Shown here: positions 19,020 through 40,352 of the stretch, piece after piece
Layout: each line of letters opens with the position of its first letter
Numbering within the stretch: the first letter of the stretch is position 1
Made by a program: the position numbers and the translations under genes
The notes under the pieces: generated by a model
What the model was told of the DNA's origin: nothing
Databases searched by the model: none
What the model saw: the letters and a program-made list of their open reading frames with translations, nothing else
DNA from: Nitrospirota bacterium
Lineage (GTDB): Bacteria > Nitrospirota > UBA9217
Length of the DNA: 64,000 nucleotides
Assembly: GCA_963796285.1 (NCBI GenBank)
Contig: CAWCKW010000003.1
Coordinates: 224,001-288,000 of the forward strand
Direction: 5' to 3'

Positions 19020-21120
19020 ATGCCCGTCATACAGCGGAGCATCCACGACCCGGAGGATCATTCCCGAACGGGATTTTTCGACAGTTATCTTTTCCCTGTT
19101 CTGCTGCTGATTATTGCGGCACTGGCCGTGTATTCCAACACGCTTCAGGTTCCGTTTCAGTTCGATGATCCCACCAATATTACGGACAACCCCCTGGTCC
19201 GGAACGTCCGTAATTTCGAAAATTGGGATGTCCTGATGCAGCCGAGGTCGCTCACCAATCTCACCCTTGCGCTGAACTTCCGGTTCAACGGTACGGCGGT
19301 TGCCGGCTATCACGTCGTCAACATCCTGATCCACCTTATCAACGCTCTGCTCGTTTACGCGCTCGTTGCGCTGCTCTTCCGGACCCCCGCATTGCTCCAG
19401 TCTTCATTGAAGAAGCACGCAGGCGTCATCGCCCTTTTTGCGGCCCTCCTCTTCGTCACTCACCCGGTCCAGACGGGCGCGGTCACCTATATCGTCCAGC
19501 GCCTGGCCTCTCTCGCGACGCTGTTCTTCCTCGCCAGCGTCTCGGCCTATCTGAACTCGCGGCTTGCCGCTGAGGACCGCCGGTCGAACAGGGTCCGGTA
19601 CTTGTGGTACGTGGTTGCTCTCGTCTCGGCGGTCCTTGCGATGAAAAGCAAGGAGACGGCGTTCACGCTTCCGATCATGCTATGTTTGTGCGAGTTCCTC
19701 TTCTTCACCGGTGGTTTGCGAAAAAGGATCGCTTTTCTGCTGCCCTTTCTCCTGACCATGCTGATCATCCCGTTCTCCCTGCTCGGGACGGGAAAGCCGC
19801 TTGGCGATATGGTGGGCGATGTGAGCAGAGTCACGCGGCTCGAAACAAACCTGCCGAGAACAGAGTATCTTTTTACCGAATTCCGGGTCATCGTCACGTA
19901 CCTGCGGTTGCTGCTGTTCCCCGTGAATCAGAATCTTGACTATGACTACCCTGTCTATCAGTCCTTTTTCGACGTCCCTGTGCTTTTATCCTTTCTTCTC
20001 CTGGCATCCATTTTCGGGTGGGCGCTCTTCCTTCTCCACCGTGACCGGCGTTCTCCTTCCGAAGGCAGGCTTGTCGCCTTCGGCATCCTCTGGTTTTTCA
20101 TCACCCTCTCCGTGGAGTCGAGCGTCATCCCCATCGCCGACGTGATCTTCGAGCACCGGCTCTATTTGCCGTCCGTGGGGTTCTTTGTCGCAGCAACTGC
20201 GCTCCTGTTCCGCGGCGTCGGGAAGCTTCGGCTCCGGCATGCGGTGACGGCGCTCATAGCCGCGCTGTCGCTGGCTGTTGTCGCCTTCGCCGGCCTCGCC
20301 TATGCCAGAAACACCGTCTGGCAGAGCGAGGTGAGTTTGTGGCAGGATGTGATCCGGAAAAGTCCGATAAAGGCGCGGCCCTATAATGGATTGGGTCTGG
20401 CCTTCTTGAATTTGCACGAGTATGACAGGGCGATCGAGTGTTTTGCCAGAGCGATCTCGCTCAATCCTTCCTATGGAACGGCGTTCAATAACATCGGGAG
20501 TGCCTTTTATCTCAGCGGGAGGTACGACCGGGCGGTTGAAGCGCACACCCGGGCCATCGCGTTGCAGCCCGAAAATGCAATCTTTCGAGACAACCGCGGT
20601 CTTGTCTTCGCAGCAATGGGCGACCATGAACGTGCAATGAATGATTACGACAAGGCAATCGCCCTGAACCCGTCTTATGCCATGCCCTATCACAACATCG
20701 GTGTCGTCCTTCACCGCCGCGGCCTGTATGGGGAAGCCATTGAGCGCTACACAAAGGCCATCACGCTGGACCCGGCCAACAGCACCTTCCGGGGCAACCG
20801 CGGCCTGGCCTATGCCGAGATCGGCGATTATGGAAAAGCCATAGCCGATTTTACGCAGGTTATTTTTTTAGATCCCGATAATGTTCAGGCCTACAGCGGA
20901 CGGGGAGAGGTGTATCTCCGGCAGCAGCGATATAGCCGAGGCGGATACGGACCTTACCGAAGCGCTGTCTCTCGATCCGGCCAGTGCCGGTCTCCTGGTG
21001 CTTCGCGGCACAGCACGCGAACGGGCTGGACAACCATCCCAGGCACGCACCGACTTCCAGGCGGCCTGCGACAGGGGTAGTGTTGAAGGATGTAACGCAT
21101 TAAAACGATTAACGCATTAA
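19020..21120 (+). CDS. TMTC-like GT-C glycosyltransferase + TPR (copy 1); frameshift near 20920
   Basis: FQFDD in the first loop, HPVQTGAVTYIVQR, KSKE, EHRLYLPS, then TPRs; the true C-terminus is in ORF 20881-21120 (ACDRGSVEGC). Confidence 0.85.
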
Positions 21121-21286: not shown

Positions 21287-21302
21287 TGGCATGGCCATTG
21301 CT
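21287..21302 (+). promoter_or_regulatory. Sigma54 (-24/-12) promoter of the cytochrome operon
   Basis: TGGCATGGCCATTGCT, a near-consensus match, preceded by an AT-rich tract and the palindrome TGGTGAATTCACCA at 21198-21211. Confidence 0.82.
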
Positions 21303-21391
21303 ATATAGATAAGACAGAAACAAGGAACAAAGTTGATTTACAGGTTACCTCTTTAGAATTTGTTTTCTGGAATCATCGGTTCGGGGTTGCT

Positions 21392-22355
21392 ATGAAAAAG
21401 CGCGGATACAATAATTATTCCACCTCGATCATCATTGCCGCATGCTACCTGGTTGCTTTGGGCAACTATGAACAGGCGCATGCGGTGAATGTAACCTTCA
21501 TGTACACCTTGTCCGATTTTACCGGTCCCATTATATATGACGGAGCAACGGTGTATGTCGATGGGGCCCGGAATGAAGTCTATGTCGTTTCCAAAGGCAT
21601 TGTGAAGGTTTTCAACGACAACGGTATGGAGATCTACCGATTCAACGACGGCGATGAGTTGGGCGCGATCTCTTCTCTTGATTTCGACCAGCAAGGCGAC
21701 ATCTATGCGCTTTCCTATAAGTACGGCTATCTGCAGGCATCCTACAATATCCTTCGCTGCAATTATCGCGGAGAAATACAAAGCACTATTGAAATAAAAG
21801 GGGTCCCCTCAAGCTTCAAGGACTTCATGCCGAGATACATGGCGTACCGTGACCGTAAGTTCTATCTTGCGGACCCATCAAGCCTGAGGATCGTGGTTAC
21901 GGACATGAGCGGTCAGGTCCAGAAAAGCTTCGATTTAATATCCATTCTTGAGCTCAAGGAATCGGACAGGCAAGACACCGAGATGGGTGGATTCAGCGTG
22001 GATAAGGACGGAAACATGCTGTTTACCACGCCAACACTGTTCAGCGCGTCCGTACTATCTCCGGACGGGAAAGATCGCTTCCTTCGGTCAGGCAGGAAGC
22101 ATACCGGGAAAATTCGCGAATATCTCCAGTATCATACGCGACAATCGAGGCAATATCCTGGTGGCGGACAAACTAAAAGACGTGGTGACCGTTTTTGACA
22201 AGAATTTTAATTTCCTGATGGAATTCGGTGGACGAGGAAACGCGCCGGAGAATATTGTAATCCCCATGAACATGGCCCTGGACAGCGACAACAGGCTTTT
22301 TATTACACAGTCCAGCAGCAGAGGGGTAAGCGTTTTCAGGCTGCTGTACAACTGA
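21392..22355 (+). CDS. Secreted NHL-repeat beta-propeller (OscA-like position); frameshift near 22070
   Basis: Signal peptide AHA; joins ORFs 21392-22198 and 21948-22355; blades such as GNILVADK..VTVFD...FGGRG...P...ALD...LFITQ. Confidence 0.8.
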
Positions 22356-22487
22356 AAGCCATTAGTAGAAGAAGGAGGTGATAACCCAAAGAGAGAAGAA
22401 CGTAACCAGCAATTGCAGCAGGCAGTACGCAACAGCAAGTAGTGCAGCATCTCAAACAGGCATGCCGGTATGACCGGCACAGCCATC

Positions 22488-22568
22488 CTCCGTAAATAGT
22501 AAACCCATCGCAAGGTGGGGACACAAAGTCGACAGATCCCGGAAACAGGACGGCCGGGTCTGCCGGAG
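22488..22568 (+). ncRNA. GEMM-I cyclic dinucleotide riboswitch, A20 variant (c-AMP-GMP-type)
   Basis: ctccg-taa-ATAGTAAACCCATC-GCAA-GGTGGGGACACAAAG-tcgacagatcccggaaacaggacggccgggtctgc-cggag. P1 is ctccg/cggag, there is a GNRA tetraloop, and GT pairs with AC in GACACAAAG (covariation). It ends 22 nt before the cytochrome ATG. Confidence 0.85.
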
Positions 22569-22590
22569 CAAATTAACATGGAGGATGTAA

Positions 22591-23857
22591 ATGAAAATCG
22601 TCAAATTTAGCTTTATCCTCGTTGCTGTGCCGCCGTAGTATTCGGCCTCAGCGGCATAGCTTCGCGTTCCATACCGGCGGCGTCGCCGAATGTACTGGTT
22701 GCCACAAAATTCACGATGGTCAACAGGCGCCAACCGTTGCAGGTTGCCGGTGACGAGTTCCACCTGCCTGTCCTGCCACGCGAAATGCGGCCAAAGGCAG
22801 CTACCACATTGCCACGACATCCGCAGACCAGGCCGGCGGCCCCGGCACCTGGCCCGTTAACATACCCCGGGCGGCGACTTCGCATGGCTGAAGAAAGACT
22901 ATCTTCTTGCCGTACGCAGCGACCACAACCACGAACGATGGCTATACCCATGGCCATAACATCGTTGCGGCGACTATGGTTTTGCGCGGATCCGGTCAAC
23001 ACCACCGCTCCCGGCGGCACGTTCCCAGCCGGCAATCTCGCCTGCAACAGCTGCCATGACAACCATGGTCGTAACCGTATTAGCTCGAACATGACCGTAG
23101 CCACGGGCGGCGCGCCGATCATCGGCTCCGGTTCGTACAGCACCAGCGTCATGCCGGCAGCCGGCCAGGCAGTCGGTGTGTATCGTCTGCTCCGCGGACT
23201 CGGCGATGTCCATGCATCGGGCGATGACCTTCGCAGCGATGATCCGCCGTCGTTGCCGTTGCACCGGGCACCTACAACGCGGTCGGAAGGCACTCACTGC
23301 ATACGCGTGTTGCCTACGGCTCCGGTATGTCTGATTGGTGCGCAACCTGCCATCCTGACATGCTTACCGCTACCGCCGCCAAGCACTCGCACCCGGCAGG
23401 CGCTGACGCGTAAGTTCCGGCACGATCAGATGAACAATTACAACGCCTATAAGATGTCGGGCAACATGACCGGCGCGTCGGCGACAGCATACAACTCACT
23501 GAGTCCCGTTCGAAGAGGCGGCACGGGCGGACGGCTGAGCAATTTCATGTCACCCTTAAAGTCCATGGCCAAAGAACGATCGGCGCACCCGATGGGGCGC
23601 GGTATGACGAATTCTCAGGTCATGTGCCTCACCTGCCACGGGCGCATGCCTACAGGCATTCACCCACATGACCAGATGGTTTAACGACAGCGAGTTCATC
23701 GGTCACCAACAGCCTCTATCCGGGTACGGACAACTCGCGGAAAGAGCTACTCCCTGGCTATAATGAGCAGACTATGCCCTTTACTACGGCAGGACCGGTA
23801 ACTCAGTTTGCCACCTATCAGCGGTCTCTCTGCAACAAGTGCCACGCGAAAGACTAA
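22591..23857 (+). CDS. OmcS-family hexaheme cytochrome (copy 1), heavily frameshifted in this consensus
   Basis: GGAGG RBS. Fragments across frames: AFHTGGVAECTGCHKIH, STCLSCH, PGGDFAWLKKDY, HGHNIVAADY, APGGTFPAGNLACNSCHDNHG, VAYGSGMSDWCATCH, VMCLTCH and C-terminal YQRSLCNKCHAKD*, collinear with Geobacter OmcS. Confidence 0.9.
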
Positions 23858-23881
23858 TGTTTGCTAGGTTATCAACTAAAG

Positions 23882-23914
23882 GGAGGGCCGAGAATTGCCG
23901 GCCCTCCTTTTTTT
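23882..23914 (+). terminator. Intrinsic terminator immediately after omcS-like copy 1
   Basis: ggagggccg-agaattgc-cggccctcc-TTTTTTT. Confidence 0.88.
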
Positions 23915-23998
23915 AACAACATATTGAAATTTGGCGTTGATCGTGGTAAAATATCTGCACTTTTCTCGATACATGGAACAAGCGGGTAATTCACCCTC

Positions 23999-25287
23999 AT
24001 GAAAATCATCTAAACTAATCCTGCTTTCGTTGCGCTCATGATGATTATCGGCACAAAGGACCGGATTGCGTTTGCGTTTCACGGGGGTGGCGTCGGCGCC
24101 TGCGATGCCTGCCACAGTATGCATAACGCTTCACCATCCGCCGGAGGAGCACTCTTCAAGGCCTCGGATCCCAGCTCGGTCTGCCTTAATTGCCACGAGC
24201 GGGTAGGCGACATGGGTCCCACGAACTTTCACGTAAGCACGTCGGTTGCCGATATGCCCCCTGGCTATCCGCCAAAGCAGCTCACGCCGGGCGGTGACTT
24301 TGGCTGGCTGAAAAAGAACTATTCTGGCTCCCGGGCGCCTCGCAGCTTCCGATGTACAGCTATGGCGACCGGCATGGCCACAACATTGTGGCGAACGATT
24401 ATTCCTATTTTCCCGATGCGACAAAGGTGAGCGCCCCGGAAGGGAACTATCCCGCCGCGGACCTGACGTGCATCAGCTGTCACGACCCGCACGGAACTAT
24501 CGCAGGGATTCGACAGGCGCCATCAACGCCTCAGGAGCCCAGATCATGGGATCGGGTTCCTTTGCATCCAGTCCCGATCCCCAGCCGGGGATTGCCGTAG
24601 GCGTGTACCGGCTTCTTGGGGGAAGGAATTATCAGCCGAAATCCGTGAGCGGAAACTTCGCTTTCTTGAACGACCCGCCCGCGGCCGTGGCGCCGGACAA
24701 GGCACAACAGATCGGAATCCACGGCCCAGACGCGCGTGGCCTATGGCGCGGGAATGTCCGAATGGTGCCAGAACTGCCATACGACCATGCATACGATCGC
24801 GAGCACGGCAACGCCTACGACGCCGCCGACCCATCCCGTAGGGGGCCTTGCAAAGCTGGGCTCCACGATTTCGAACAGCTACAATGCCTACATCAAGAAC
24901 GGCGATCTCACCGGCAGCATGAACACGTCGTTCCTCTCCCTCGTTCCGTTCGAGGAAGGGACCACGAATTACGCGGCGCTCAAGTCCCATGCCAAAACGG
25001 ATGACTCCTATCTTTTCGGACCCGATGCCATCTCTTCGCAGGTGATGTGTCTTACCTGCCACCGGGCCCATGCCTCGGGCTGGGACGAGGCAACTCGATG
25101 GAATGCCAATACGGACTATATTGTGTACAACGGGTTCTTTTCCCAGGACAGCCAACCATATCAGCCCTACGGCCAGGGCCGGACGGAAGCTGAGGCGCAG
25201 CAGGCCTATTACGCCATGCAGGCAACGAAATTCGCGGTAAACCAGGATACGCTCTGCCACAAATGTCATTCAGGGACGCTCCCATGA
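23999..25287 (+). CDS. OmcS-family hexaheme cytochrome (copy 2, OscC/OmcT-like position), several frameshifts
   Basis: AFAFHGGGVGACDACHSMH, CLNCH, QLTPGGDFGWLKK, HGHNIVANDY, CISCHDPHG, YRLLGGRNYQPKS, AYGAGMSEWCQNCH, SLVPFEEGT, CLTCHRAHASG, LCHKCH (six CxxCH). Confidence 0.92.
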
Positions 25288-26702
25288 CCAGGATATTCTC
25301 TTCCATTACTTCAGGTATCATCTTTTTCGTTTTCGTCCTGGCGGGATGCCGGACCGTCCCTGTGCAGACCATGCCTCCGCTTGAGGATGAAGGCGAGGTG
25401 CTGATCTATCTCCAGCCTTTTCCGGCCGAGGCCGTGGCGCTCCGGTTCACCCTCTCGTCGATCTCCGTGCTCCGCGATGACGGCACGGAATTCCCCCTCG
25501 AGCTTTCAATAACCGATTACTCGGGCAAGAGCATGGCCCGACAGAGACTGATCGCATCGGGGCGACTGCCGGCGGGGCGGTACACCGGTGTTCTCGTCGG
25601 CGCCGGGAGCGCCGTCCTGAAAAACGAAGACCGGACCGAGACGAACCTGATCGTGCCGGAGGCGCCCCGGAAGCAGCAGTTCCTGTTCATTGTGGAGAAA
25701 AAAAAGGCGCTCCTCATCGCGCTCTCGTTCCAGGTTGCGGGATCATTGCAGGAAGGGTCCAATTTCTCTCCTTCGTTCGAGGCCACGGTCCCCACAAGGC
25801 CGCTTGACGATCTGACGGGATACCTGTCGGACAGCGGCGATAACGCGGTCGTGGTTTTCGACAAACTCAGGATGCAGGCGACCGGCGTCATCGCGACCGG
25901 AAGCGGTCCCGGAGCCGTCGTCATCGATACGCGGTCCAGGAAGGCCTATGTTTCCCTGTCCAACGGCGACGCCGTTGACGTCATCGACATGACCACCGGA
26001 TCCATCCTCAACAGGATCACCCTCTTCGGGGGAGACGAGCCTCAGGAGCTTCTGCTCACGCCGGACGGTCAGACCCTGCTCGTGGTGAATGCCGGCTCGG
26101 ACTCGGTGAGCTTTATCGACACGAACTCCCTCGTGGAGCGTGCCAGGGTCGCCGTCGGCCGGCGCCCCCGGTCCCTGTTGATGGACCCGACGGGCAAGAG
26201 AGTGTTTGTCTTCAACAGACTGTCGAACACCATATCGGTCATCGATCTTGCTTACCGCTCTTTGAGCAGCACCATAACCACGGGGCTGGAACCTCTCCGG
26301 GGGCAGTTCAACCGGACGGGCGACAGACTGTACGTGATCCATGCCCAGTACCCCTATTTGTACGTCATTGATCCGTCGTCATTCTCCGTTCTCCAGCAGC
26401 AATTCATGGGGACAGGCATCGTTTCGCTCAAAATCGACACGCGGACCGATCTGCTCTACCTTTGCAAAAAGAACGAATCGGTGATCACGGTCTACAATCT
26501 TTTTACCTTTACTCCGGTTGCATTTATCCCGACCCCGGGCACGGTGGAGTACATGACCATTGATAATGTCACGAATAACCTGTACGCAATTGTGCCGGAA
26601 CAAAAGGTCCTGATGATCATCAATCTTTTAAACGGGAAGACCGAAGGCGAGATTGACGTGAATCGGCAGCCGTCGTGGGTGACCATGACGGGGGAGCGAT
26701 AA
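25284..26702 (+). CDS. YVTN/YncE beta-propeller lipoprotein (OscD-like)
   Basis: LAGC lipobox; YVTN-type repeats (LLVVNAGSDSVSFID...VAVGRRP; VFVFNRLSNTISVID); ATGA coupling to the cytochrome. Confidence 0.85.
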   Translation: MTRIFSSITSGIIFFVFVLAGCRTVPVQTMPPLEDEGEVLIYLQPFPAEAVALRFTLSSISVLRDDGTEFPLELSITDYSGKSMARQRLIASGRLPAGRYTGVLVGAGSAVLKNEDRTETNLIVPEAPRKQQFLFIVEKKKALLIALSFQVAGSLQEGSNFSPSFEATVPTRPLDDLTGYLSDSGDNAVVVFDKLRMQATGVIATGSGPGAVVIDTRSRKAYVSLSNGDAVDVIDMTTGSILNRITLFGGDEPQELLLTPDGQTLLVVNAGSDSVSFIDTNSLVERARVAVGRRPRSLLMDPTGKRVFVFNRLSNTISVIDLAYRSLSSTITTGLEPLRGQFNRTGDRLYVIHAQYPYLYVIDPSSFSVLQQQFMGTGIVSLKIDTRTDLLYLCKKNESVITVYNLFTFTPVAFIPTPGTVEYMTIDNVTNNLYAIVPEQKVLMIINLLNGKTEGEIDVNRQPSWVTMTGER

Positions 26703-26703
26703 G

Positions 26704-28979
26704 ATGGGTTGCGCAAGGAGATCAGCGACCGCAACGGGCCGGGCGGCAGCGTGGACCGGGGGATTCATTGTCAGCTTGTTTTTTTTTTGGTCGCCCCGGC
26801 CGGCCGTGGCCGATTCGATAACCGGCCACGCCGATCTGATCTATACAAGGACTAACTCAGTGTCGGAAGACCCCACGGGAAACCAGCAAAACACGGAAAG
26901 CCGGGGGCTTAATCAGATCTACACCCTGGCCGCGGACAAGATCCTGCTGCCGAATCTGAAGCTCTATGCGAGCGGCATTTTTCAGCAGAATGCGTCCGAC
27001 TCCATAACGAATGGGGAGAAAACATCGTCAACGACGGTCCTGACAAGACCGTATCTCGATCTGACCCTGCGGTCGTCGCCCTTTTCCGGGGGAGTGAACT
27101 ACAGCAAAGTGACGATCGAAACAAGGACTGCCGGCTCCCCCCGGATACCGCTTATTAGCGAGGCCTACAACGGCTTCCTGGGCTGGAAGCCCTCGGAGCT
27201 GCCATCGCTCGACATTAGGATGAATCAAACAAAAAATTACGACCAGGACCGCGTCCAGATCAATACGGAGACCAGAACTGCAAGCGTAAGCTCGGACTAC
27301 TCCCCCGTGAAGACCGTTCATTTGCGGTACTATGGGAACTATACTGATCAAAAAGACCTGCTCGGGGGCAACGAGACGACATCCATTGGACACGATGGAA
27401 GGATCGATTACGGCGACCAGTTCTTCCGCAACCGGCTCTCCCTGACCGCGAGCGGGGAAGAAGCCTACTCGACGACCAGGACCTCGACGGCAACCGGCCA
27501 GGGTACCGTCAGCCAGCAGGTGTTTGCGATCCAGGGTCTGTCCCTGAACACCTTCGACGTCCAGGGACTTTCCCGCATTCAACTTGCCGATGCCTCGTTC
27601 CTGATCGACAATGTGCAGAACGGGCCACGGAACGACAGCAACAATATCGGTGCGAGCCTCTACCCGCAGGACACGACGCCACGGAATATCGGTCTGCAGT
27701 TCGCCGTGCCGAGCGAGGTGAACACGGTCGATGTCTGGGTGTATTCCGTCCATGATACGAAAAATCCCGACACGACGCAGGATTATCTGACAGCCGCCGT
27801 GTCCGGCGCCTATACCTGGGCGGTGTACACGAGTTCGGATAACATCACCTGGAGCCTCTATCAGTCGGGCGTGCCCGCAACCTATACCCCCTTGGCAGGC
27901 CAGCTCGGTGTGGGAAAATTCGAAGTTACCTTCCCGAGCGTGACCTCGCAGTATCTCAAGGTGGTCGTCACTCCCATCGTGCCGTCAGCGGCGGGAACCG
28001 AGGGGCAGAGTTTTCCCGGCGTGTATCTGGCCGAGCTCCAGGCCCTGATCTCCACCTCGGCCGCAAACGCACAGGGTCAGCACTCTGCGAAAACGCAGAC
28101 CCTGAACGTAGCGGCCAAATACACCATCCTGGAAAAGCCCTTCTTGTCCTACGACTTTTCGTATTTTGAAGTTCAGTCGGAGTCGTTCCTTTCCATCACG
28201 AGAAACTCAACCATGTCAAACGGCCTTTCATACAGCCAGAAATATAACACGGTCTTTTCCGGAGGCGCGGGAGTACAACGGATCGACGAGAACGGCAGTG
28301 ATCCGAACAGCCGCAGGGTCATCTATCAGTTGAGCACATCGCTCATGGCGGTCCCCCTGCCCACGCTCCACCACAGTCTTTCCTACAGCTATCAGGACCA
28401 GATATCAGCGGAGGGGGACAGTTCGAGTAATTCGGTGTATATGACGAACGCAGCAGACCTTTATAAGGGCGTCGCCATATACGTGAACGGCGGGGAGACA
28501 TGGGCTGTCGATATAAACCATGAGAGTTCGACATCGGTCCAGTACTCATACGGCTTTACTCTGGCTCCTCTTAAAACACTGTCGATCACCGGTTCCTCCA
28601 CCTATTCCAGGTCCATTTCAAGTACGTCTGTCTATTACTCGCGGAGCGACACCCTCGGCGTGGCCTACTCCCCTTTTACCACAATGTTTATAAGTGCGTC
28701 CTGGACCACGCAGGACGAAACCGCCCATCACGACAGGCTTCAGAACTATTCCTTTAGCTGGTCTCCTTTCCCCGGCGGTGACCTTGTATTCAATCTCGCC
28801 TATCTGGAGACCGTGCAAATGCAGAACAATGCCATCCAAAAGACTCTCCAGGAGTCATTGCGCTGGAATATCAATCGAAAATGTTCGTCCAGACCGGCTA
28901 TGCTGACATTACTGAGAATTCCGATCTCCAGCGCACGCTGGAAAGAACATTTTCAGCGGAGTTAAATATAGTGCTCTAA
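26704..28979 (+). CDS. Large outer-membrane beta-barrel protein with an inserted beta-sandwich domain (OscE-like); frameshift near 28880
   Basis: Signal AVA; Tyr/Ser/Thr-rich amphipathic strands; central WAVYTSSDNITWSLY...QYLKVVVTP segment resembling a discoidin fold; corrected end ...TFSAELNIVL*. Confidence 0.72.
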
Positions 28980-29305
28980 GGGGTAGTTCAAAAGTTCTAT
29001 GAAAACCAGTGAGGCAAATATGAAACCACACCCTGCACTCGCGGTTCCACTCGTAAACGCTGCGCGCAGGCAGTGTGCACTGAGGAATGCTCGGGGGGAA
29101 CCTGAACGCATTGAGCTTTCTTTCAACATGATACACAGTGCTCTCATGGTTGAAGAGTCAAGAGGATGATAAAAGGCGCAAATAAGAGGAGGATCACAGA
29201 GGGGGAGGCGATGCCAAGGACGTTTATATCCCTTAGATTCAAGCAGTTCTCAGAGAACTCTGTGGTTCGATTTTGACATTACGCTCTAGGGGAGAAGGAG
29301 GGTTC

Positions 29306-29872
29306 ATGTTTTTCCGGAAAATCGTATTGATCATGATGATCGCCGGCGTTGTCGGCTGCGGCCGGACGACATCAGATGTCTTTCGGGATCAGGCCATGGA
29401 TTTCGGCTTGATCCAGACCGTTGCGGTTATGCCCTTCGCGAACCAGACGCGGGAACAGACCGCGTCGGACCGCGTTCGGGACGTTTTTATCAACAGACTG
29501 CTGTCCACCGGGGGGGTGTATGCGCTCCCGATCGGCGAGGTGAAGCGGGGAACGTCTCGTGCGGGAATCGCTGAACCCACAGCCCCCTCTCCGGAGGACG
29601 TCGTAAAGTTTGCCGGTATCGTCAAGGCTGACGCCGTGATCACCGGTGACGTGAAAGAATACGGCGAAGTGCGGTCCGGCACTGCCAACGCGACCATGAT
29701 CTCCATAAGCATGCAGATGATGGAAGCACAGACAGGCCGGGTCGTCTGGTCCGCATCCTCAACACGGGGCGGTGTCAGCATGAGCGACCGTCTTTTCGGT
29801 GGAGGCGGAGAACCCATGAACATTGTGACCGAGAGAGCAGTAGATGATATCATCCATAAATTGTTCAAATAG
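29306..29872 (+). CDS. Lipoprotein of CsgG/DUF799/PelC-like alpha/beta fold (OscF-like)
   Basis: AAGGAGG RBS; VVGC lipobox; TVAVMPFAN, ADAVITGDVKEY and TGRVVWSAS motifs. Confidence 0.82.
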   Translation: MFFRKIVLIMMIAGVVGCGRTTSDVFRDQAMDFGLIQTVAVMPFANQTREQTASDRVRDVFINRLLSTGGVYALPIGEVKRGTSRAGIAEPTAPSPEDVVKFAGIVKADAVITGDVKEYGEVRSGTANATMISISMQMMEAQTGRVVWSASSTRGGVSMSDRLFGGGGEPMNIVTERAVDDIIHKLFK

Positions 29873-32800
29873 ACGCTGTAGGCTCCTCATCGCCGCATGT
29901 TTGGTCCTGTCGGGGTGCGCCGGCGTCAATCATGCGGTGCCGACGAATCCTTCCGGGCAACGGCATCTCAGCATCGCCGTGTTCCCGGTAGAGAACAAGA
30001 GTGCTGTCAAAGCGCCTCTTCGAGAGATCCAGCAAGCGATCGTGAAGCGACTGGAGTCTACAGGGGCTCGCTATCGTTGATGAAGAGGCGCTCAAGCGGA
30101 CCCTGGACAAGCACCGCGTGCGTTATCTCGGTGGACTGGACTCCTCGGTGTCCAAGGCCCTGCAAGAGGAAGCAGGAGCAGATGCGGTACTGATCACCTC
30201 GCTGGAACTGTACAACGAACTGGCCCCTCCCCGGATCGCCCTTCTGTCCCGACTGGTCTCTACAGGGCCCAGACCGGAGATCCTCTGGTCCGACAGCGTG
30301 GGACTGGCCGGAGATGAAGCTCCGGGCCTGCTCGGCCTGGGTCTGATTAACGATCCTAAGGTCCTGAGAGAAAAGGCCGTCGGAACGCTGACAGGCTCCC
30401 TTGCCGCCTTTTTATCGGGCGAGAAAATCGAGTTGGAGGGCGGAAGAAAGAGCTATGCGCCGAAGATAAAGTTCCGCTCCTCTTCTGTCGGCTCTGATCT
30501 TCTGGAGAATGACGTCAATTTTGTGGACAGGACGTCGAGCGGCGACGATCGAAAAGGCCGTGCGCGCATTGCCGTGACGCTCACCTCCCCCGGTAAAGCC
30601 CCGGTTACGGTTGAGTATGCCGACGGGAACGGAACTGCTTCAACGGGGAAGGACTATGAGCTCAGGGGAAACACGCTGACCTTCGCCCCCGGCGAGACGA
30701 GAAAAGAGATCGAGATCGAAGTGAAGTACAACGCGGTTTACAAGGACAACAAGACAGTTAACCTCATTCTGAAGAGTGCGAAGGGTGCAGCTCTCGGCAG
30801 CACGACCGTGCATACGTATACCATCGTGAACACGGTCCCCCCGCCGACGGCGTCGTTTGCGTCAGCGAGCCAGCAGGTGAAGGAGACCGAAGGTCCTGCG
30901 ACAATGCTGGTGGAGCTGTCTGCAATATCGGGGAAGGACGTGACGGTCCCCTTTACCGTGAGCGGGACGGCAAAGACGCCGGGTAATTACACGATCACGT
31001 CGAGCCCGGTAGTGATCAAGGCGGGCGCGAAGAGCGCAGGGATCGTGGTAAGCCCGGTGGACGACAAGATCAGCGAAGAGGACAAAACGGTAGTGGTGGT
31101 CATGGGCGTGCCAATGAACGCGACGCAGGGGAAGACGACGGAAGGCGTTGTGACCATCGCGGACGCCGATCCGAAGCCTGCGGTGGGGTTCACGGCCGCG
31201 AGTTCGAGCGGGGAAGAGAAGATAAGTCCGGCGCGTCTCGAGGTATCGCTGGGGGCAGTGAGCGGCAGGCAGGTAACGGTGGAGTACGCGGTCACGGGCG
31301 GCACGGCGGTTCGGGGGAAGGATTATTCGGTGAAAGAAGGCAGCCTGACCTTCGCCCCCGGCGAGACAAAGAAGGAGATCGAGCTCGGCATCGGAAACAA
31401 CGGGATCTACGACGACAACAAGACGGTGGCAGTGGGACTGAAGAGCGCGCAGAACGCCGTACTGGGCGGGACTGCAACACACACCTACACCATCGTGAAC
31501 ACCACACCCATGCCCGACGGTGGCGTTCATGCACGCGAGTTCGAGCGGGGATGAGAAGACGAGTCCTGCCCGGCTGGAGGTGTCGCTCGGGGCAATGAGC
31601 GGGAAACCGGTAACGGTGGAGTACGCGGTCACGGGCGGCACGGCCGTTCGGGGGATAAACTACACATTGAAGGACGGGGCACAGACCGTGACCTTCGCCC
31701 CCGGGGAGACGGTAAAGACCGTCGAGATCGGGGTCAAGGATGACGGGCTGAATACGGATAACAAGACCATCGAAGTCGGCCTGAAAAATCCGAAGGGTGC
31801 TGTTCTCGGAAACACGACCATGCATACCTATACCATCCTTGACGCAGACCCGATGCCGACGGCGTCGTTTGCGTCAGCGAGCCTGCAGGTGAAGGAGACC
31901 GGGGGTCCTGCGACAATGCTGGTGGAGCTGTCTGCGATATCGGGGAAGGACGTGACGGTGCCCTTTACCGTGAGCGGGACGGCAAAGACGCCGGGTAATT
32001 ACACGATAACGCCGAGCCCGGTAGTGATCAAGGCGGGCGCGAAGAGCGCAGGGATCGTGGTAAGCCCGGTGGACGACAAGATCAGCGAAGAGGACAAAAC
32101 GGTAGTGGTGGTCATGGGCGTGCCAATGAACGCGACGCAGGGGAAGACGACGGAAAGCGTTGTGACCATCGCGGACGCCGATCCGGAGCCTGCGGTGGGG
32201 TTCACGGCCGCGAGTTCGAGCGGGGAAGAGAAGATAAGTCCGGCGCGTCTCGAGGTATCGCTGGGGGCAGTGAGCGGCAGGCAGGTAACGGTGGAGTACG
32301 CGGTCACGGGCGGCACGGCGGTTCGGGGGAAGGATTATTCGGTGAAAGAAGGCAGCCTGACCTTCGCCCCCGGCGAGACGAAGAAGGAGATCGAGCTCGG
32401 CATCGGAAACAACGGGATCTACGACGACAACAAGACGGTGGCAGTGGGACTGAAGAGCGCGCAGAACGCCGTACTGGGCGGGACCGCGACGCACACCTAC
32501 ACCATTATGAACAGCAATCCCAAACCGTCGGTTGCGTTCACTGCCGCGAATCAGCGGCTCAAGAAGTTCGCCGGCAATGTTCACCTTACCCTTCAGCTCT
32601 CGAACATATCGGGCAAGGATGCGGTCGTGCCCTTTACCGTCGGCGGCTCCGCAGTTCAAGGCAAAGATTATACCGTTACAGCGAGCCCGGTTAGGGTTCC
32701 GGCCGGCGAGCGTGACGCCGTCATTACGATCGAGCTGAAAGAAGGCCCTCCCTCAGAAGTCGATAAAACGATCGAGTTGAAGCTCGGGAACCCGGATAAT

Positions 32801-33313
32801 GCGCTCCTCGGGTCGCCCAATTATTACCGGCTGGTCCTGGTCAAAGACGCGCGTCCAACCATTGCTGTGCTTCCCTTTTTTAATACCAGCAGGAAAAATG
32901 ACGCCGGCGATATACTTATGCTTCAATTCGTCAAGGAACTGAGGAAACTGACCGATTTCACCGTGTTCGAGCCCGGCATTGTAAGAGAACATCTCCTGAA
33001 CATGCGGGTCATTATGTACGAGGGGATATCCTCTTCCGATATTGATCTGATAACAGGCAGCCTTGACGCGGACCTTATCGTGACGGGAAAGGTTTTCGAC
33101 TACAAGGATTTCGAATCCTCCTGGGGCAAGCCCCGGGTGAATTTTACCGTCATGCTGATCTCGAAAGCCAGCAAAAGGGTGGTCTGGTCGTCCAGCAGCG
33201 TCAACTCGGGAGACGACAGCCTCCTCCTGTTCAGCTGGGGCGAAGTCAATACGGCGAATGCAATGGTATCGGAAATGATCGAGGCAGTTCGCAAAACCAT
33301 GCTCTCGTGGTAG
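29844..33313 (+). CDS. Large lipoprotein: two CsgG/PelC-like domains separated by seven Calx-beta-like repeats (OscG-like); frameshifts near 30070 and 31515
   Basis: LSGC lipobox; IAVFPVEN...ADAVLITSL (domain 1); repeats VTVEYA..GTA..GKDY....TLTFAPGETKKEI and VTVPFTVSGTA; IAVLPFFN...ADLIVTGKV..VVWSS (domain 2). Confidence 0.8.
30843..32505 (+). repeat. Near-identical 651-bp direct repeat (30843-31493 and 31855-32505) inside the Calx-beta region
   Basis: Sequences align at a constant 1012-nt offset with only scattered substitutions. Confidence 0.92.
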
Positions 33314-33388
33314 GAAACGTGCTGAAGCCGAAATAAGCCCGGATTTGGCACGGTGCTGATTGACACTATTACAGAAAGAGGTGAAAGA

Positions 33389-35186
33389 ATGTTGAAAAAA
33401 ATATTCGTTGTAACAGGCATACTCACGTATGTACTGGCAGCTGCTTCCCCGGGGTTTGCATCAGATCGAAAGACGGCCCCGGCGGGCGCTGCTGCTGCCC
33501 AGGAACAACCGGTGGCGCCGGAGGACAAGATGGTTATGTTCGTAAAAGACGTTAGTTCTTCCACAATCATAACCGTTCCGACCCTCTCCACGGTGAACGC
33601 CGACCTCCCGGTTGCCGAAGTGAATGGAGAGCGCATAACCGTAAATGACCTTCGGTCCGCAATCGGAAGCGTCCACGACCAGAAGAAAGAGGCGGAGCAG
33701 GAGACGGTCAAGCAGGTGTCAAGGATCGATATGGCGGGATTGCTGCAACGCCTGATCAACGTCGCGCTTATGTTCCAGGAAGCGCGGAACATCGGTCTTG
33801 ATGAGTTGCCCGAGGTGAAGAACTCCCTGGACATATTTTCCCAGGTTACCCTGAGAGACCTGCTGCGCCAGAATTTATGGAATGACGTTTCCGTGAGCGA
33901 CGACGAGGTCGATAAGGAATACAAGGAGGCGGTGCGGGAGGTGAGGACAACTTCAGCCTTCTTCGACAAGGAGGCGGCTGCGAAAAAAGCCGCGGCCAGG
34001 ATCAAGTCAGGAAAGAAATTCGAAGATGTCATCGCGCAGGCAGTCAAGGCCGGAACCGCGAAGGGCACCGAAGAGGAGAACTTCATCAAATTTCGGGAAC
34101 TCGATGCTGCGGTCTCCAAGGCGATCGCCACGATGAAAATCGGGTCCGTTGGACCTGTTACAAGGGTGAAACTCAAGGGGAAGCCCTATTTTGCCCTCTT
34201 CCGGTATGAGGCTGAGCAGTATCCCGAAAATGCCGCTGCCAGGGAGCAGGCGCGAAAAGACGTCATGAACACAAAGCGAGTGGCGTCGCTCGGGGCGCTT
34301 ATCACCTCCCTGAGCCAGAAAAACGTAACGATGCACAAAGAGCTCTTTGAAGGACTCGACTACGGACCGAAGGGACCAGGGCTTGAGAAACTCATGAACG
34401 ACGAGCGGGTCATCGCTCGACATCAAAGGAGACAAGCCTGTTACGGTATCTCAGCTGTCCGAGGCAATGCAAGACAAATTCTACCACGGCATGAAGAACC
34501 TCAAGGGCAAGAAACTGGACGAGACGAAGCAGAAAGTCCTGGAATCGATCGTGCAGAAACGGCTTTTGTACCTCGAAGCGCTGAGCCGCGGTCTCGACAA
34601 GTCCCGAGAATATAAAGACATGCTCAAAGACTACGAGCGGAACATTGTTTTCGGGATGTTCGTTCAGCAGATTGTTGCCCCGAGCGTGGCGATTAATGAA
34701 GACGATCAGCGTGCTTATTATCGCGAACATGCTGCGGAGTTCATGTCTGAACCGCGGGTGAAAATAGCGCATCTTGCTTTCCTTCAGAAAGCCGATGCCC
34801 AGTGGGCCATGGACAGGATGCAGAAAGGCGCCGACTTCGGCTGGGTCAAAGCCAATGCCGCGGGGCAGGCGCCGGACAGCAAGGACGAGGAGCCTGCATT
34901 CGGGATCGACGCGGTGCCCGTATCCTCACTGGCGGAGGATGTCCAAAGTACCCTCGTTGGCGTAAAAGCCGGAGATGTCCGGCTCTACGAAGGCCCGAAG
35001 GGTCCATACCATGTACTGTACATTCAGGAAATGATCCCCCCGCAGCAGCAGACCTTTGAGCAGGTACGCCCGTCCCTCGGCTCGAACGTATATTATACCA
35101 AGCTGAACAAGGCGGTCGACGAGTGGACCCGCAAACTGAAAGAGACTGCCGACATCAAGATCTACCTGGCTGAATCGGCGAAGTAA
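33389..35186 (+). CDS. SurA/PrsA-like peptidyl-prolyl isomerase chaperone with duplicated modules (OscH-like); frameshift near 34420
   Basis: Signal GFA; VAEVNGERIT, EARNIGLD, VSDDEVDKEY, EALSRGLDK, YYREH..EF..EPRVKIAHL and parvulin-like segments. Confidence 0.85.
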
Positions 35187-35214
35187 AAATATGAGAACAC
35201 TGCAGAGGAGAACC

Positions 35215-37191
35215 ATGCATACCACCCATTTAAAACCAAACGCGCTTCTCATCGGACTGCTCCTTCTTCTGGGAGGAACTTTTTTTCTGACGACAGCGAA
35301 CCCCGCGTTCGCGCAGCAGCGATTTGAAAAGAAAGACTGTCTCGAGTGCCATAAGAAATTTGCCGACAAATATCTTGGCATGAAAAACGTCCATCGCGTG
35401 GTCAAAGAAAAAAAATGCGATGAATGTCATCTCCGGCATGGCAGAATTCCCAAACTGCTCCTCAAGAGGCCGGGGAATGAGCTCTGTTTTTCATGCCATC
35501 CCAAGGAAAAAATAGGATTGAACAAGGCAAAAGTGCACTCCGCCGTAAAGAAGGCGACCTGCACCAGCTGTCACAACCCCCATGCTTCCCAGGGAAAAGC
35601 CCTGCTCAGGGAAGAAGGCAATGCAATCTGCACGCAGTGCCACCAGCCGGCAGACTATAGTAAGAAAGTAATCCATAAAATTCTGCAGACTGATGGATGC
35701 AAAGCCTGTCATTTGCCGCACAGCGCCGACTATGATAATCTTCTCACCAGCGCGGAGCCGGGACTCTGCCTCAACTGTCACAGCAGCGGTGCGCCGTCAT
35801 TTAAAAAAGCCCACGGAGGATATCCCGTGGACGGCCGGGCCTGCTCACGGTGCCATAACCCCCACTCCTCCGATGAGCCAAAACTCCTGAAAACGAGCCT
35901 GCATAATCCTGTCGGGTCCATAAGCTGCGATTCGTGCCACAAACCCGCGGGAGACGCAAAGCCCTTCGAAGTTACTCAGCAGGGATCGGACCTTTGCTAC
36001 CAATGCCACGACGCGGCAACGTTGAAAAACGGCGGCACGGTGGAACATCCGCCGTTCAAGGACGGCATGTGCCTTTCCTGCCACGATCCCCATTCATCGG
36101 ATAACCCGAGGCTGCTGCTCGAAAAAGGCAACAAGCTCTGCTTCACCTGCCATCCGGACAAGGACGTGAAGGTTGCGTACGGCCATAAGGCGCTCACGGA
36201 CGGAAAGGGCTGCCTGTCGTGCCACGCCCCCCATGCGGCAAAGAACAAAAAACTGCTGCTCGCCAAAGATGGCGAGCTCTGTGTTACCTGTCACGCGAAA
36301 ACCGCCGAGGCGAAAAAGGCTAAGGATGTTCATCCTCCCTTTGCCAGCGACATGTGCACGTCCTGCCACAACCCTCACGGGACAAATATCCAGGGAATGC
36401 TGAAGAATCGCATGGACACCGTCTGTTATTCTTGCCATACGAATGCGGAAGCGGATTTTCAGAAAGCGAATGTCCATCCGCCGGTAAGTCGGGCGCAGTG
36501 TACCGCCTGCCATAATCCCCACGGATCAAGTGAAGGCAAACTCCTCCGGGCGTCCGATTCGGAGCTCTGCGCGCAATGCCACGGCGATATGATGAAGGAA
36601 GTGCCGGGAGGGTCCATGCATCCGCCCTTCAAGGACCGGCAGTGTCTCCTGTGCCACAATCCCCATGCGAGCGATGTCCGCGGGATGCTCAATGGCAAAG
36701 AGGATACGATCTGCTTCCAGTGCCATGCCGAGCTGCAAAAAGGACTGGGCGCGGGGAAGAGCAAGCACGCTCCGGTGATGGCGGGTGAATGTACCAAGTG
36801 CCATAGCCCGCACAAGTCGAAATTAGCCAAGCTCCTCCTGGTGGAAAGCCCCGATCTGTGCCTGACCTGTCATACGGACATTAAAGCAAGGATGGCAGCG
36901 GGCATGGCCCATCCCCCGGCACAAAGCGACTGTATGCGATGTCATCAACCCCATGTCTCGAAGGAAACGACCCTACTGACGCAGCCGATTCCCGCGTTGT
37001 GCAGCGACTGCCACGACCTGCCGGGAAAGGAATTTGCAAAGGATCATATTAACATCAAGGCGGCGGTCATGGACTGCAGGACCTGCCACGATCCGCACGG
37101 TTCGAAAGACCCGAAGCTGTTCAAGGACGTTGAGCATCCTCCGTTCGCCGCAAGATCGTGCGACGATTGCCATATAGGAGAAAAGAAATGA
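35215..37191 (+). CDS. Periplasmic multiheme cytochrome c, 26 CxxCH (OscI-like)
   Basis: Signal AFA; 26 CxxCH counted by eye in the paired HxP...CxxCHxPH...LCxxCH pattern. Confidence 0.95.
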   Translation: MHTTHLKPNALLIGLLLLLGGTFFLTTANPAFAQQRFEKKDCLECHKKFADKYLGMKNVHRVVKEKKCDECHLRHGRIPKLLLKRPGNELCFSCHPKEKIGLNKAKVHSAVKKATCTSCHNPHASQGKALLREEGNAICTQCHQPADYSKKVIHKILQTDGCKACHLPHSADYDNLLTSAEPGLCLNCHSSGAPSFKKAHGGYPVDGRACSRCHNPHSSDEPKLLKTSLHNPVGSISCDSCHKPAGDAKPFEVTQQGSDLCYQCHDAATLKNGGTVEHPPFKDGMCLSCHDPHSSDNPRLLLEKGNKLCFTCHPDKDVKVAYGHKALTDGKGCLSCHAPHAAKNKKLLLAKDGELCVTCHAKTAEAKKAKDVHPPFASDMCTSCHNPHGTNIQGMLKNRMDTVCYSCHTNAEADFQKANVHPPVSRAQCTACHNPHGSSEGKLLRASDSELCAQCHGDMMKEVPGGSMHPPFKDRQCLLCHNPHASDVRGMLNGKEDTICFQCHAELQKGLGAGKSKHAPVMAGECTKCHSPHKSKLAKLLLVESPDLCLTCHTDIKARMAAGMAHPPAQSDCMRCHQPHVSKETTLLTQPIPALCSDCHDLPGKEFAKDHINIKAAVMDCRTCHDPHGSKDPKLFKDVEHPPFAARSCDDCHIGEKK

Positions 37192-38483
37192 AAAAATACT
37201 GCATTAATACATGTTCCGGGTTGTTTCTGCTGCTCGCGGTGGTCGGCCTTCTCGGTGTGATGAATCCAGCCGTTGCGCAGGACAAACAGGACAACAAATT
37301 CAGGCTGAAGCCGGGAGCCCGCGGGAAAAACTGCCTGACCTGTCATGTCACCTTTCAGGACAAGATCAAGATGCCATTCGTCCATACCCCCGTAAAGAAC
37401 GGCGACTGTACGGGCTGCCATAACCCCCATGACTCTTCTCATGGGAAGCTGCTGGCAGCGGATCCCAACAAGATCTGCTTCACCTGTCACGCCGACATCA
37501 TTCCCAAGAGTGCCGTCAGCGCCCACAAGGTCGTGGCGGAAGGAAACTGCATCAAATGCCACGATCCGCACTCGTCCAAGAACAAATTCAACCTCCTTGC
37601 GTCGGGAAACGAGCTTTGTTTCGGCTGCCACAAGGAGATGGGCGAGGCGATCAAAAAAGTGAAATTCAAGCACTTCCCGGTGGAGAAGGGGTGCCTCAAC
37701 TGCCACAATCCGCACTCCTCCGGCAAATCCGCACAGCTGTTGAAGGATGCGGTTCCGGCCCTCTGTCTTACCTGTCACAAGGCCGAGGCCCCGTCGTTCA
37801 AGAAACAGCACATGAATTACCCCGTCGCCAAAGGTCGTTGCACGAGCTGTCATGACCCCCATGGCTCCAATAATGCGGGTATCCTGTTCGCTAATGTGCA
37901 CCGCCCCGTGGCGAACAGAATGTGCAACCAGTGCCATGAGGATCCTACGTCCAAGACGCCCTTTGCGACCAAACGGAAAGGATTTGAGTTGTGCCGGGGA
38001 TGCCACAGCGCCGTGGTCAATGATGCATTCACCAAGAACCGGATCCATTGGCCCCTGGTCGACAAAACAGGCTGTCTCAACTGCCATAACCCGCATGCGT
38101 CACCGGAAAAGCCCCTCCTGAAGTCCAAGCTGGTCGATGTATGCGGACAATGTCACGCCGATATCATCGAGAAGCAGAAACGTTCGCCGACGAAACATAA
38201 ACCAGTCAATGACGGTCAGTGTACATCCTGTCATTCCCCGCATGCGTCGAACAACGTATTCCTGTTCGAGCAGGCGTCTTCGATCGACCTGTGCAAGACC
38301 TGTCACGATTATTCAAAACATTCGACCCATCCTGTGGGGTCGGAGGCGATCGACCCGCGGAACAATAACGCCAGCGTCGCGTGCACGAGTTGTCACGGGG
38401 TCCATGGTACGGAAAACAAACAAATGCTCTGGTACCCGACCATTAACGATATGTGCGTCCAGTGCCATACTAAATTACACTAG
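37188..38483 (+). CDS. Periplasmic multiheme cytochrome c, 16 CxxCH (OscJ-like)
   Basis: Signal AVA; 16 CxxCH counted; ATGA overlap with the previous gene. Confidence 0.95.
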   Translation: MKKYCINTCSGLFLLLAVVGLLGVMNPAVAQDKQDNKFRLKPGARGKNCLTCHVTFQDKIKMPFVHTPVKNGDCTGCHNPHDSSHGKLLAADPNKICFTCHADIIPKSAVSAHKVVAEGNCIKCHDPHSSKNKFNLLASGNELCFGCHKEMGEAIKKVKFKHFPVEKGCLNCHNPHSSGKSAQLLKDAVPALCLTCHKAEAPSFKKQHMNYPVAKGRCTSCHDPHGSNNAGILFANVHRPVANRMCNQCHEDPTSKTPFATKRKGFELCRGCHSAVVNDAFTKNRIHWPLVDKTGCLNCHNPHASPEKPLLKSKLVDVCGQCHADIIEKQKRSPTKHKPVNDGQCTSCHSPHASNNVFLFEQASSIDLCKTCHDYSKHSTHPVGSEAIDPRNNNASVACTSCHGVHGTENKQMLWYPTINDMCVQCHTKLH

Positions 38484-38493
38484 AGGTGATGCC

Positions 38494-39390
38494 ATGATGA
38501 AAAATCTGATTCTCGCAGTCATTCTGCTGTGTCCCGCTCCCGCGCTGTGCGCCGATTCGCTGCAGCTGAGGCGGACCGCCACGGTTTCCGTCGATACGGC
38601 GGGCGTTAAAATTCGGCAGCCCGAGGGCGTTGCCTGCAGGGAGAAATCCCTGCTTGTCGTGTCCGATACGGGGAACGGTCGCCTCCTGCCTTATACACTG
38701 GAAGATGACGGATCGATCAAACCGGGGACTGAGATCAAGGTGCCCTATCCTATGCATGTACGGATGAACACGAAGAAGGAGATTTTCGTGCTTGACGGGA
38801 AGCAGCACCGCATACTGCGCTTCAGCCCCACGGGGGACCCCCTGGGGTACGTCGAACCCGCAAACTTACCGGCGCCGACTGCATGGATTCCGAAGAATTT
38901 CGCGATCGATGCGAACGACAATTTATACCTTCTCGACGTTTTTTCAGCGCGGGTCATCGTTACGGGGCCTGATGCCAAATTTCAGAGGCAGATACCGTTT
39001 CCGGCAAATGACGGTTTCTTTTCCGACGTGACGGTAGATTCTCAGGGCACCATTTACCTGCTGAACAGCGTTCATGCCGCAATCTTTACCGCTGCCCGGG
39101 ATGCCGTTGCTTTTACTCCGCTGACAAAGGACCTGAGAGACCACGTCACCTTTCCCACGTCAATGGCTGTAGACAAGAAGTATATTTTTGTCGTTGATCA
39201 GAACGGCGGAGCGGTTGTTGTTCTTGGGAAAGACGGTTCGTTTAAGGGACGCAAGCTCAGAATGGGGTGGAAGGACGGCGAGCTCTACTATCCCGCCGAT
39301 ATATGCCTCAACGACAATGAGCAGGTCTTTATCGCTGATCGCGGAAACAACCTCGTTGAAATTTACCATATGGAGGGCGAACACGAATAG
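38494..39390 (+). CDS. Secreted NHL-repeat beta-propeller protein
   Basis: GAGGTG RBS; PEGVAC..LLVVSDTGNGRL; GWKDGELYYPADIC...VFIADRGNN. Confidence 0.88.
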   Translation: MMKNLILAVILLCPAPALCADSLQLRRTATVSVDTAGVKIRQPEGVACREKSLLVVSDTGNGRLLPYTLEDDGSIKPGTEIKVPYPMHVRMNTKKEIFVLDGKQHRILRFSPTGDPLGYVEPANLPAPTAWIPKNFAIDANDNLYLLDVFSARVIVTGPDAKFQRQIPFPANDGFFSDVTVDSQGTIYLLNSVHAAIFTAARDAVAFTPLTKDLRDHVTFPTSMAVDKKYIFVVDQNGGAVVVLGKDGSFKGRKLRMGWKDGELYYPADICLNDNEQVFIADRGNNLVEIYHMEGEHE

Positions 39391-39581: not shown

Positions 39582-40352
39582 TTGATAAACGGTAAAAAAG
39601 TTATTGTCGTTCTACCAGCATATAATGCCGCAAAAACGCTCAAAATGACGTATGAGGATATCCCCCGTGAGTTCGTGGATGATGTCATCCTCGTAGACGA
39701 TGCGAGTTGGGACGGTACTGCCGCGGTTGCCCGTGAACTCGGCATCAGAACGATTATTCATGAACAAAATACCGGATACGGCGGAAATCAGAAAACCTGC
39801 TATAAGACGGCGTTGGATCTGGGAGCAGATATCGTTATCATGCTTCACCCCGATTATCAATATACGCCGAAACTGATTCCGGCTATGGCGAGCATGATAG
39901 CCTACGGCGAGTTCGATGCCGTTCTAGCATCCCGCATTCTGGGTGTGGGCGCCTTGCGGGGCGGGATGCCGCTCTATAAGTATATGGCAAACCGCGTCTT
40001 GACCTTGCTTGAAAATCTTCTGATTGGGCATAAACTGTCGGAGTACCATACCGGATACAGGGCTTTTTCCCGGGAAATATTGGAACGACTTCCTTTGGAC
40101 AGAAATTCGGATGATTTTGTCTTCGACAACCAGATGCTGGCGCAGATCATCTGGTTCGGTTACCGGATCGGCGAGATCAGCTGTCCGACCAAGTACTTTG
40201 AGGATGCCTCCTCCATCAATTTTCGCCGTAGTGTTGTTTACGGACTCGGAGTGCTGAAAACAGCCTTCCAGTTCCGTTTGTGCAAGTTGAAGCTCTGTTC
40301 CGGCGGTATTTTCATCTTCCCGTCTTCCCGTTCTCGCAGCAACGTCCCCTGA
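39582..40352 (+). CDS. GT2 polyprenyl-phosphate glycosyltransferase (DPM1-like, second)
   Basis: [52 protein letters not shown]. Confidence 0.92.

Follow-up and report, generated by a model that had tools for sequence, protein, structure and literature searches.

The question raised by the stretch of DNA analysed here, 64,000 nucleotides of contig CAWCKW010000003.1 of a Nitrospirota genome (positions 224001-288000; hereafter the window, to whose own numbering all feature coordinates below refer), is whether a bacterium outside Geobacter encodes the osc (omcS-companion) cluster, which serves the making of OmcS-type cytochrome nanowires. The osc cluster itself has been already described (PMC13194489, PMC12977616, PMC13712944; these and the other PMC sources below are cited from their accessible parts), and the roles given there for Geobacter sulfurreducens, at second hand, are folding for OscH, secretion for OscEFG and wire shaping for OscD. 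We consider it rather probable that the window holds a true osc cluster, that is, a pathway that would fold OmcS-family hexahemes, export them through an outer-membrane barrel and let them assemble, at the surface of a UBA9217 cell, into a heme wire; the gene content suggests that this host may produce filaments.

Eleven genes, all on the plus strand, occupy positions 21392-39390, and the order given in the preliminary description, i.e., an NHL-type propeller, two hexahemes, a YVTN propeller, a beta-barrel, two PelC-like lipoproteins, a peptidyl-prolyl isomerase (PPIase), 26-heme and 16-heme cytochromes and an NHL propeller, was confirmed by six-frame translation and Pfam. In comparison with the G. 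sulfurreducens genome (G079), recognised as such by an OmcS that does not differ from PDB 6EF8, the best match of each of the genes A, D, E, F, G, H, I, J and K was the window gene of the same rank (30-61% identity), the reverse searches agreed for the six genes tested (A, D, E, G, H, K), and OscF had a single strong match in the G. sulfurreducens genome. The tblastn E-values against the orthologues, from 1e-113 to 1e-31 per gene, exclude a chance resemblance to the osc genes. With the cluster defined by its eight-gene block (PMC12977616), GSU2500-GSU2493 are found in order behind a GSU2501-type hexaheme, and the relatives with intact genes show the identical gene order. Thus, the likeness to the omcS-companion cluster that had been proposed is borne out as orthology and synteny by reciprocal best matches.

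Signal peptides and heme ligands were recognised in the cluster proteins. Propeller A (21392-22355) is the orthologue of the gene preceding G. sulfurreducens omcS, presumably GSU2505, and the best match both ways; the same holds for the OscD-like YVTN beta-propeller lipoprotein (25263-26702; 42% identity; TIGR02276) and the OscK-like NHL propeller (38494-39390; 47% identity). The OscH-like SurA/parvulin chaperone with a two-domain PPIase (33389-35186) is followed by the OscI-like cytochrome with 26 CXXCH motifs (35191-37191; 55% identity to the gene at the GSU2495 position) and the OscJ-like cytochrome with 16 CXXCH (37188-38483; 59% identity). The oscJ of G. sulfurreducens (L110:6189-7529) is itself frameshifted in the reference, with 10 CXXCH in frame and 6 in the next, the relatives having 16 in one frame; the switch lies near nucleotides 850-870, close to position 868, at which a frameshift is described for other strains (PMC13194489); these may therefore carry the intact allele.

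The spermidine-synthase-like gene was rightly said to be without counterpart in the cluster: the nearest homologues (27-28%) of G. sulfurreducens oscB, a 1035-aa fusion of major facilitator superfamily and spermidine-synthase parts, are on another contig. It was not counted as defining, since only about 9 of the 80 related loci carry an oscB-like gene (chosen by length); it is missing in most, cultured Geomonas included, and its loss as an unusual trait was rejected on the same count. These loci were the best 80 of the 168 relatives found in GTDB genomes by the OscF alignment, and the identical order occurs among them in loci titled Geobacter, Geomonas, Geotalea, Anaeromyxobacter, Acidobacteriota, Rokubacteria, Schekmanbacteria and Nitrospirota. 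Accordingly, the surprise expressed earlier at an osc cluster outside Geobacter was overstated: the cluster is present in many phyla, and copies outside Geobacter without oscB are common. Shen et al. 2025, Cell Chem Biol 32:239, reportedly published the osc cluster as widespread, to judge by the title as cited elsewhere. Two loci (L200, L201) encode products of about double the usual length, namely a hexaheme inside the operon (825 aa) and, as an open reading frame (ORF) of 1179 aa, a barrel.

The cargo of the pathway would be the hexahemes S1 (22591-23857) and S2 (23999-25287), each with six CXXCH when read across the breaks in their reading frames, and with His16 and the five intra-subunit distal histidines kept. 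In OmcS, 11 of the 12 heme ligands come from the subunit itself and one from its neighbour (Filman 2019, PMC6584659). Across 107 aligned hexahemes, exactly 11 histidines are invariant and His16 is present in 97, which fits His16 as the donated ligand. Wang 2019 reportedly assigned the inter-subunit heme ligand to His16; no residue number for it was found in the accessible parts of the literature searched. On this assignment, S1 and S2 have the composition of an OmcS-type polymerising hexaheme (six CXXCH, five distal His and the donated His). In a quick tree of 109 hexahemes, from which six sequences with other N-termini were omitted and in which S1 and S2 were read with X at the breaks, S2 groups with the G. 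sulfurreducens OscC (GSU2501; support 99) and S1 belongs to a separate clade of 41 (support 97); neither of them nor S3, a third hexaheme of the window discussed below, groups with OmcS/OmcT, and none is OmcS sensu stricto. The two hexahemes initially called OmcS-like do both have the six CXXCH, but the second corresponds to OscC, and the first is not a member of the OmcS/OmcT clade. S1 is the positional match of omcS, because a GEMM-I aptamer sits just upstream, and is likely the major filament subunit. The tree placement agrees with PMC12977616, according to which a GSU2501-type gene always stands ahead of the eight-gene block and a true OmcS is unrecognisable outside the genus.

The aptamer (22488-22567, plus strand; RF01051, 41.1 bits against a gathering score of 35) is homologous to the riboswitch before G. 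sulfurreducens omcS. The G20 of this class contacts the ligand (PMC5888326), and the omcST riboswitch of G. sulfurreducens answers to cyclic GMP-AMP (cGAMP) and cyclic di-GMP (c-di-GMP) alike (PMC6456294). In the alignment, the window aptamer has A at this ligand-specificity position, where the c-di-GMP consensus has G, and is of the GEMM-Ib sequence type. An A at position 20 of GEMM-I we take to mark the cGAMP type. Among 12 GGDEF motifs found by a pattern search of the host genome, one has Ser in place of Asp; its protein (G000:C12, L307:422-1570) has 6D9M as the best PDB match and shares the Ser with its best G. sulfurreducens match, both of which are presumably GacA, and it is a candidate GacA-type cGAMP synthase. 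Upstream of the gene, the riboswitch pattern is present in 40 of 190 cases with His16 and in 0 of 43 without, a descriptive count with kin not independent.

How the hexahemes would leave the cell bears on a different explanation, by which the cluster exports or displays them as monomers or short oligomers in an MtrAB-like porin-cytochrome conduit, long filaments being a speciality of Geobacter OmcS. For the OscE-like protein (26704-28979), the intact orthologue of a relative was modelled (44% identical; predicted local distance difference test score, pLDDT, 91; predicted template-modelling score, pTM, 0.62); the model is an outer-membrane barrel, of about 30 strands, that carries a CBM32-like insert (Z 10.9, root-mean-square deviation 3.1, 129 aligned). 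OscE has no family in Pfam, NCBIfam or Atlas. Its best Foldseek match is MtrB (6R2Q_B; E 8e-10, TM score only 0.39), which speaks for the conduit together with the OscI score above the cut-off of the DmsE/MtrA-type family TIGR03508 and with the fact that OscC, which alone among the subunits has a clear orthologue in G. sulfurreducens, is not known to polymerise. However, VIA-align gives OscE Z 13.2-14.2 against LptD, CymA, PapC, FimD and MtrB, all within 1 Z unit, so that MtrB is not favoured over the other large barrels and no particular barrel relative is claimed. Besides, in the oscD-holding loci, His16 is present in 122 of 122 distinct in-operon hexahemes across phyla, which fits a general head-to-tail linkage (outside the operon, 24 are with and 9 without it; kin not independent). 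The conduit is, in our opinion, unlikely.

The osc exporter proper would include two lipoproteins, which lipobox cysteines and Pfam support as CsgG/PelC-like: the intact OscF (29306-29872; PelC/LpoB/GNA1162-like; 61% identity to the G. sulfurreducens gene) and OscG (29844-33313), with two PelC-like domains and seven Calx-beta repeats between them (30516-32824). The model of G. sulfurreducens OscG (pLDDT 91, pTM 0.89) likewise has two PelC-like domains, with a PelC match at E 3e-9, and the models suggest that OscF/OscG and OscE may form a PelBC-like ring-and-barrel. OscG is variable: across 86 distinct loci, 69 are plain, 9 have Calx-beta repeats, 1 has MBG repeats, 1 has a PKD-like insert that is partial, and a further 6 are long in other ways, 3 of these with PKD/Ig (immunoglobulin)-like repeats. 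Where Calx-beta repeats were counted, in 11 loci, they number 2 to 25, and over the relatives 0 to 25; the OscG of a same-genus genome (G006) has the MBG repeats, at its N-terminus, instead of Calx-beta. An assembly artefact was rejected as the origin of the Calx-beta repeats, whose copies are 63-100% alike and present in short- and long-contig relatives; one long 'OscG' (locus L097) was left out, being taken as fused with oscB through a frameshift. The occurrence of Ig-like stalks of three unrelated types, some of a length far beyond the width of the periplasm, suggests that the stalked OscG may be surface-exposed, with an adhesive or spacer role. PelC faces the periplasm, which counts against such exposure; the stalk is relevant to the sidedness of OscG at the membrane.

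The cluster had been called complete, and so it is in gene content, not in intactness: six of the 11 genes are broken in the assembly. By frameshift-aware alignment to intact relatives, there is one frameshift in A (near 22068), 13-14 in S1, 3-4 in S2, one in E (near 28880), two in G (near 30060 and 31517) and one in H (near 34419), while D, F, I, J and K are intact, giving about 22 in 18 kb, or about 1.2 per kb (0.54 without S1). The control was a set of 137 ORFs from a same-genus genome, 54 of them with clear orthologues in the host; 7 of the 54 are split, with 9 breaks in 73 kb (0.12 per kb). The explanation that this strain carries a genuine cluster in decay, its product no longer made, could appeal to this excess of frameshifts over the control genes, to a dispersed-repeat insertion of 310 bp between oscE and oscF (28972-29281), and to 4 of 8 other genomes of the genus without a hexaheme match. 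The insertion is missing in close relatives (joint in 3 of 4 runs), has related pieces on five contigs of the host genome and gives no Rfam match at the gathering score; its core (29029-29071) is common to many unrelated contigs. Such a decay seems improbable to us, since the breaks are single-base indels that keep all the heme motifs, with at most 1-2 stops, near the breaks; five genes are intact, the 26- and 16-heme ones among them; the same scatter of breaks is seen in other low-contig-number assemblies, and dsrA is likewise split. Moreover, public runs hold contigs of related strains, for the most part 85-95% alike to the window, that differ from it by single-base indels at 22657, 22863, 24028, 28877, 30060 and 31517 (among the 12 of 81 matches listed), so that the genes are whole in close relatives. 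The frameshifts are probably for the most part assembly errors. The housekeeping gene ettA (59684-61195) aligns to its same-genus orthologue from residue 90 onward, which suggests a frameshift there as well.

Several points weigh against the wire-making pathway. The supposed major subunit S1 stands outside the OmcS/OmcT clade; the breaks are denser in the cluster than in the control genes (1.2 or 0.54 vs. 0.12 per kb), and, given this density, there may be real decay, of S1 above all. PMC12977616 leaves room for an original use of the eight-gene block in some other secretion, and for GSU2501-type proteins that do not form wires; in Shewanella, the omcS gene by itself has been reported to yield OmcS filaments (bioRxiv 2023.10.26.564108), and what such filaments do physiologically is under dispute (PMC11077965). 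If the osc pathway, which we continue to prefer, does operate, OscH would fold the hexahemes, OscEFG would secrete them and OscD would shape the wire, with a PelC-like OscF/OscG ring at the OscE barrel as PelC is at PelB. S1, behind the riboswitch, would be the abundant subunit, switched on by cGAMP and/or c-di-GMP; each subunit would donate His16 to a heme of the next, and the 26- and 16-heme proteins would pass electrons across the periplasm. The Calx-beta stalk and the His16-less S3 would be lineage-variable accessories.

S3 (56605-57747, minus strand) is intact and matches 6EF8 at E 6.8e-93, with the other 11 invariant histidines kept and Ala at position 16, i.e., without the inter-subunit histidine; in comparison with OmcS (6EF8), it also lacks two surface loops, the loop 19-36 and the hairpin 150-177. 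Ten His16-less hexahemes, S3 included, form one side of a branch (support 95) that spans the host genus and loci titled Geobacter or Desulfuromonadaceae, with one His16-bearing row inside. In the best 120 of 4409 homologues, 95 show the heme-1 region, and 76 of the 95 are without His16 and with the other 11 His kept; the closest relatives are likewise without the two loops, and 14 have a seventh CXXCH before heme 1. A His16-less paralogue is found in at least 13 of 23 hexaheme-bearing Geobacteraceae genomes, loci titled Geomonas oryzae and Geobacter sp. AOG1 included. Since no member of this conserved subfamily without His16 was seen within the operon, S3 becomes a candidate filament end-piece. 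When S3 was co-folded with the S1-position subunit of G006, the score was 0.41 (best control 0.00; at least 77% contact agreement across runs; partner pLDDT 88), a mark that 116 of 157 solved pairs and 2 of 215 mismatched ones attained, though at 0.60 or below only 18 of the 157 and both mismatches did so; the co-fold weakly favours the pairing, though likeness to 6EF8 may explain the score.

As an end-piece, S3 would take His16 from the last ordinary subunit and could not pass one on, the loops of the donating face being gone and, in some relatives, an extra heme being exposed there; it would cap the wire, either as a mineral- or cell-contacting tip or as a terminator. We put forward only tentatively, as a possibility we rather doubt, that S3 is such a dedicated tip or terminator and that, with the variable OscG stalk, osc is a pilus-like machine (shaft, tip and adhesive spacer) under cGAMP control. 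Against it, His16 is missing in 0 of the 4 paralogues of G. sulfurreducens, which does form OmcS wires (for the same reason S3 as an essential component was rejected), two genomes (G003, 98% complete in 230 contigs, and G304, 84%) show the His16-less gene only, and S3 sits 17 kb from the cluster. Equally plausibly, S3 is a free, monomeric cytochrome that leaves by the same exporter. Nanowire termination and tip are posed as open in the accessible part of PMC13712944, with no tip candidate in the OmcE operons; the S3 subfamily offers a concrete one for OmcS-type wires, occurring in cultured strains, and, if truly capping, would permit control of nanowire length. Some genomes (G018, loci L017-L019; G084) have five or more hexaheme paralogues, several behind an NHL gene of their own.

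The suggestion of a Nitrospirota-like host holds, on indirect evidence: the genome is in the same family as a GTDB-labelled UBA9217 genome, according to kinship labels, locus titles and Table S1 of PMC11033732, and a host in Geobacterales was rejected. A cluster match was found in 30 of 401 Nitrospirota genomes, including 18 of 63 others in its own family and 11 in five other families. The host genome contains cytochrome c assembly genes, the split dsrA and 31 reading-frame segments with at least three CXXCH; narG was not found in it above the cut-off. Among public runs, no RNA run matched, and the five DNA runs that did (shares <0.1) all hold relatives of this strain, so that no claim on habitat or expression is made.

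About nine membrane proteins with C-terminal tetratricopeptide repeats (TPR) and genes of glycosyltransferase family 2 (GT2) flank the cluster (17167-21080, 39582-48743, 51798-56335), as in relatives. We take these membrane proteins to be TMTC/GT-C-like; the TPR part alone was confirmed, a PDB search having given TPR matches only and no glycosyltransferase domain. The ORFs at 49915-51309 (plus strand, 464 aa) and 52969-54180 (minus strand, 403 aa) belong to no Pfam or NCBIfam family, and the former has a 76% identical homologue near the cluster of a relative. A split gene (15013-16795) encodes a surface protein with fibronectin-III and InlB-B-like repeats, whose homologues adjoin hexaheme genes in two genomes (G027, G035). 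The flanking TPR and GT2 genes recall the glycosylation genes that adjoin omcE clusters (PMC13712944).

The cluster carries a known system into a poorly studied, dsrA-encoding subsurface/soil lineage and suggests that this lineage can respire or exchange electrons outside the cell. This copy varies from the known system in its stalked OscG, a likely cGAMP circuit and a candidate end-piece; a literature search, beyond whose reach most subscription literature and Shen 2025 with its supplements lay, gave no report of an osc cluster in Nitrospirota, of Calx-beta in OscG or of a His16-less paralogue. With the osc cluster of G. sulfurreducens (GSU2505-GSU2493), the window shares the gene order A-hexahemes-D-E-F-G-H-I-J-K, the 26-heme OscI, a GEMM-I riboswitch before the first hexaheme and a nearby GT2 gene, and differs in the Nitrospirota host, the lack of oscB, the two in-operon hexahemes outside the OmcS/OmcT clade, an OscG of about 1150 aa with seven Calx-beta repeats against 392 aa, and the His16-less paralogue 17 kb away, of which G. 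sulfurreducens has none. With OmcS (PDB 6EF8/6NEF), the six CXXCH and five invariant distal His are common to S1, S2 and S3. The GacA-cGAMP-GEMM-Ib circuit of Geobacter (PMC6456294) is matched by the A-type riboswitch before a hexaheme and a GGDEF protein with the GacA Ser, while the enzyme N-terminus, as read from sequence, is GAF-like instead of a receiver, the circuit is in a Nitrospirota host, and one riboswitch of the A-type pattern was found in its genome against 17 in G. sulfurreducens. Finally, the PelBC exporter (PDB 9H80, 5T0Z) and CsgG resemble the osc apparatus, according to genes and models, in the two PelC-like domains of the OscG model and the large barrel encoded adjacent, whereas osc differs from both in its cytochrome cargo, tandem domains and optional Ig-like stalk.

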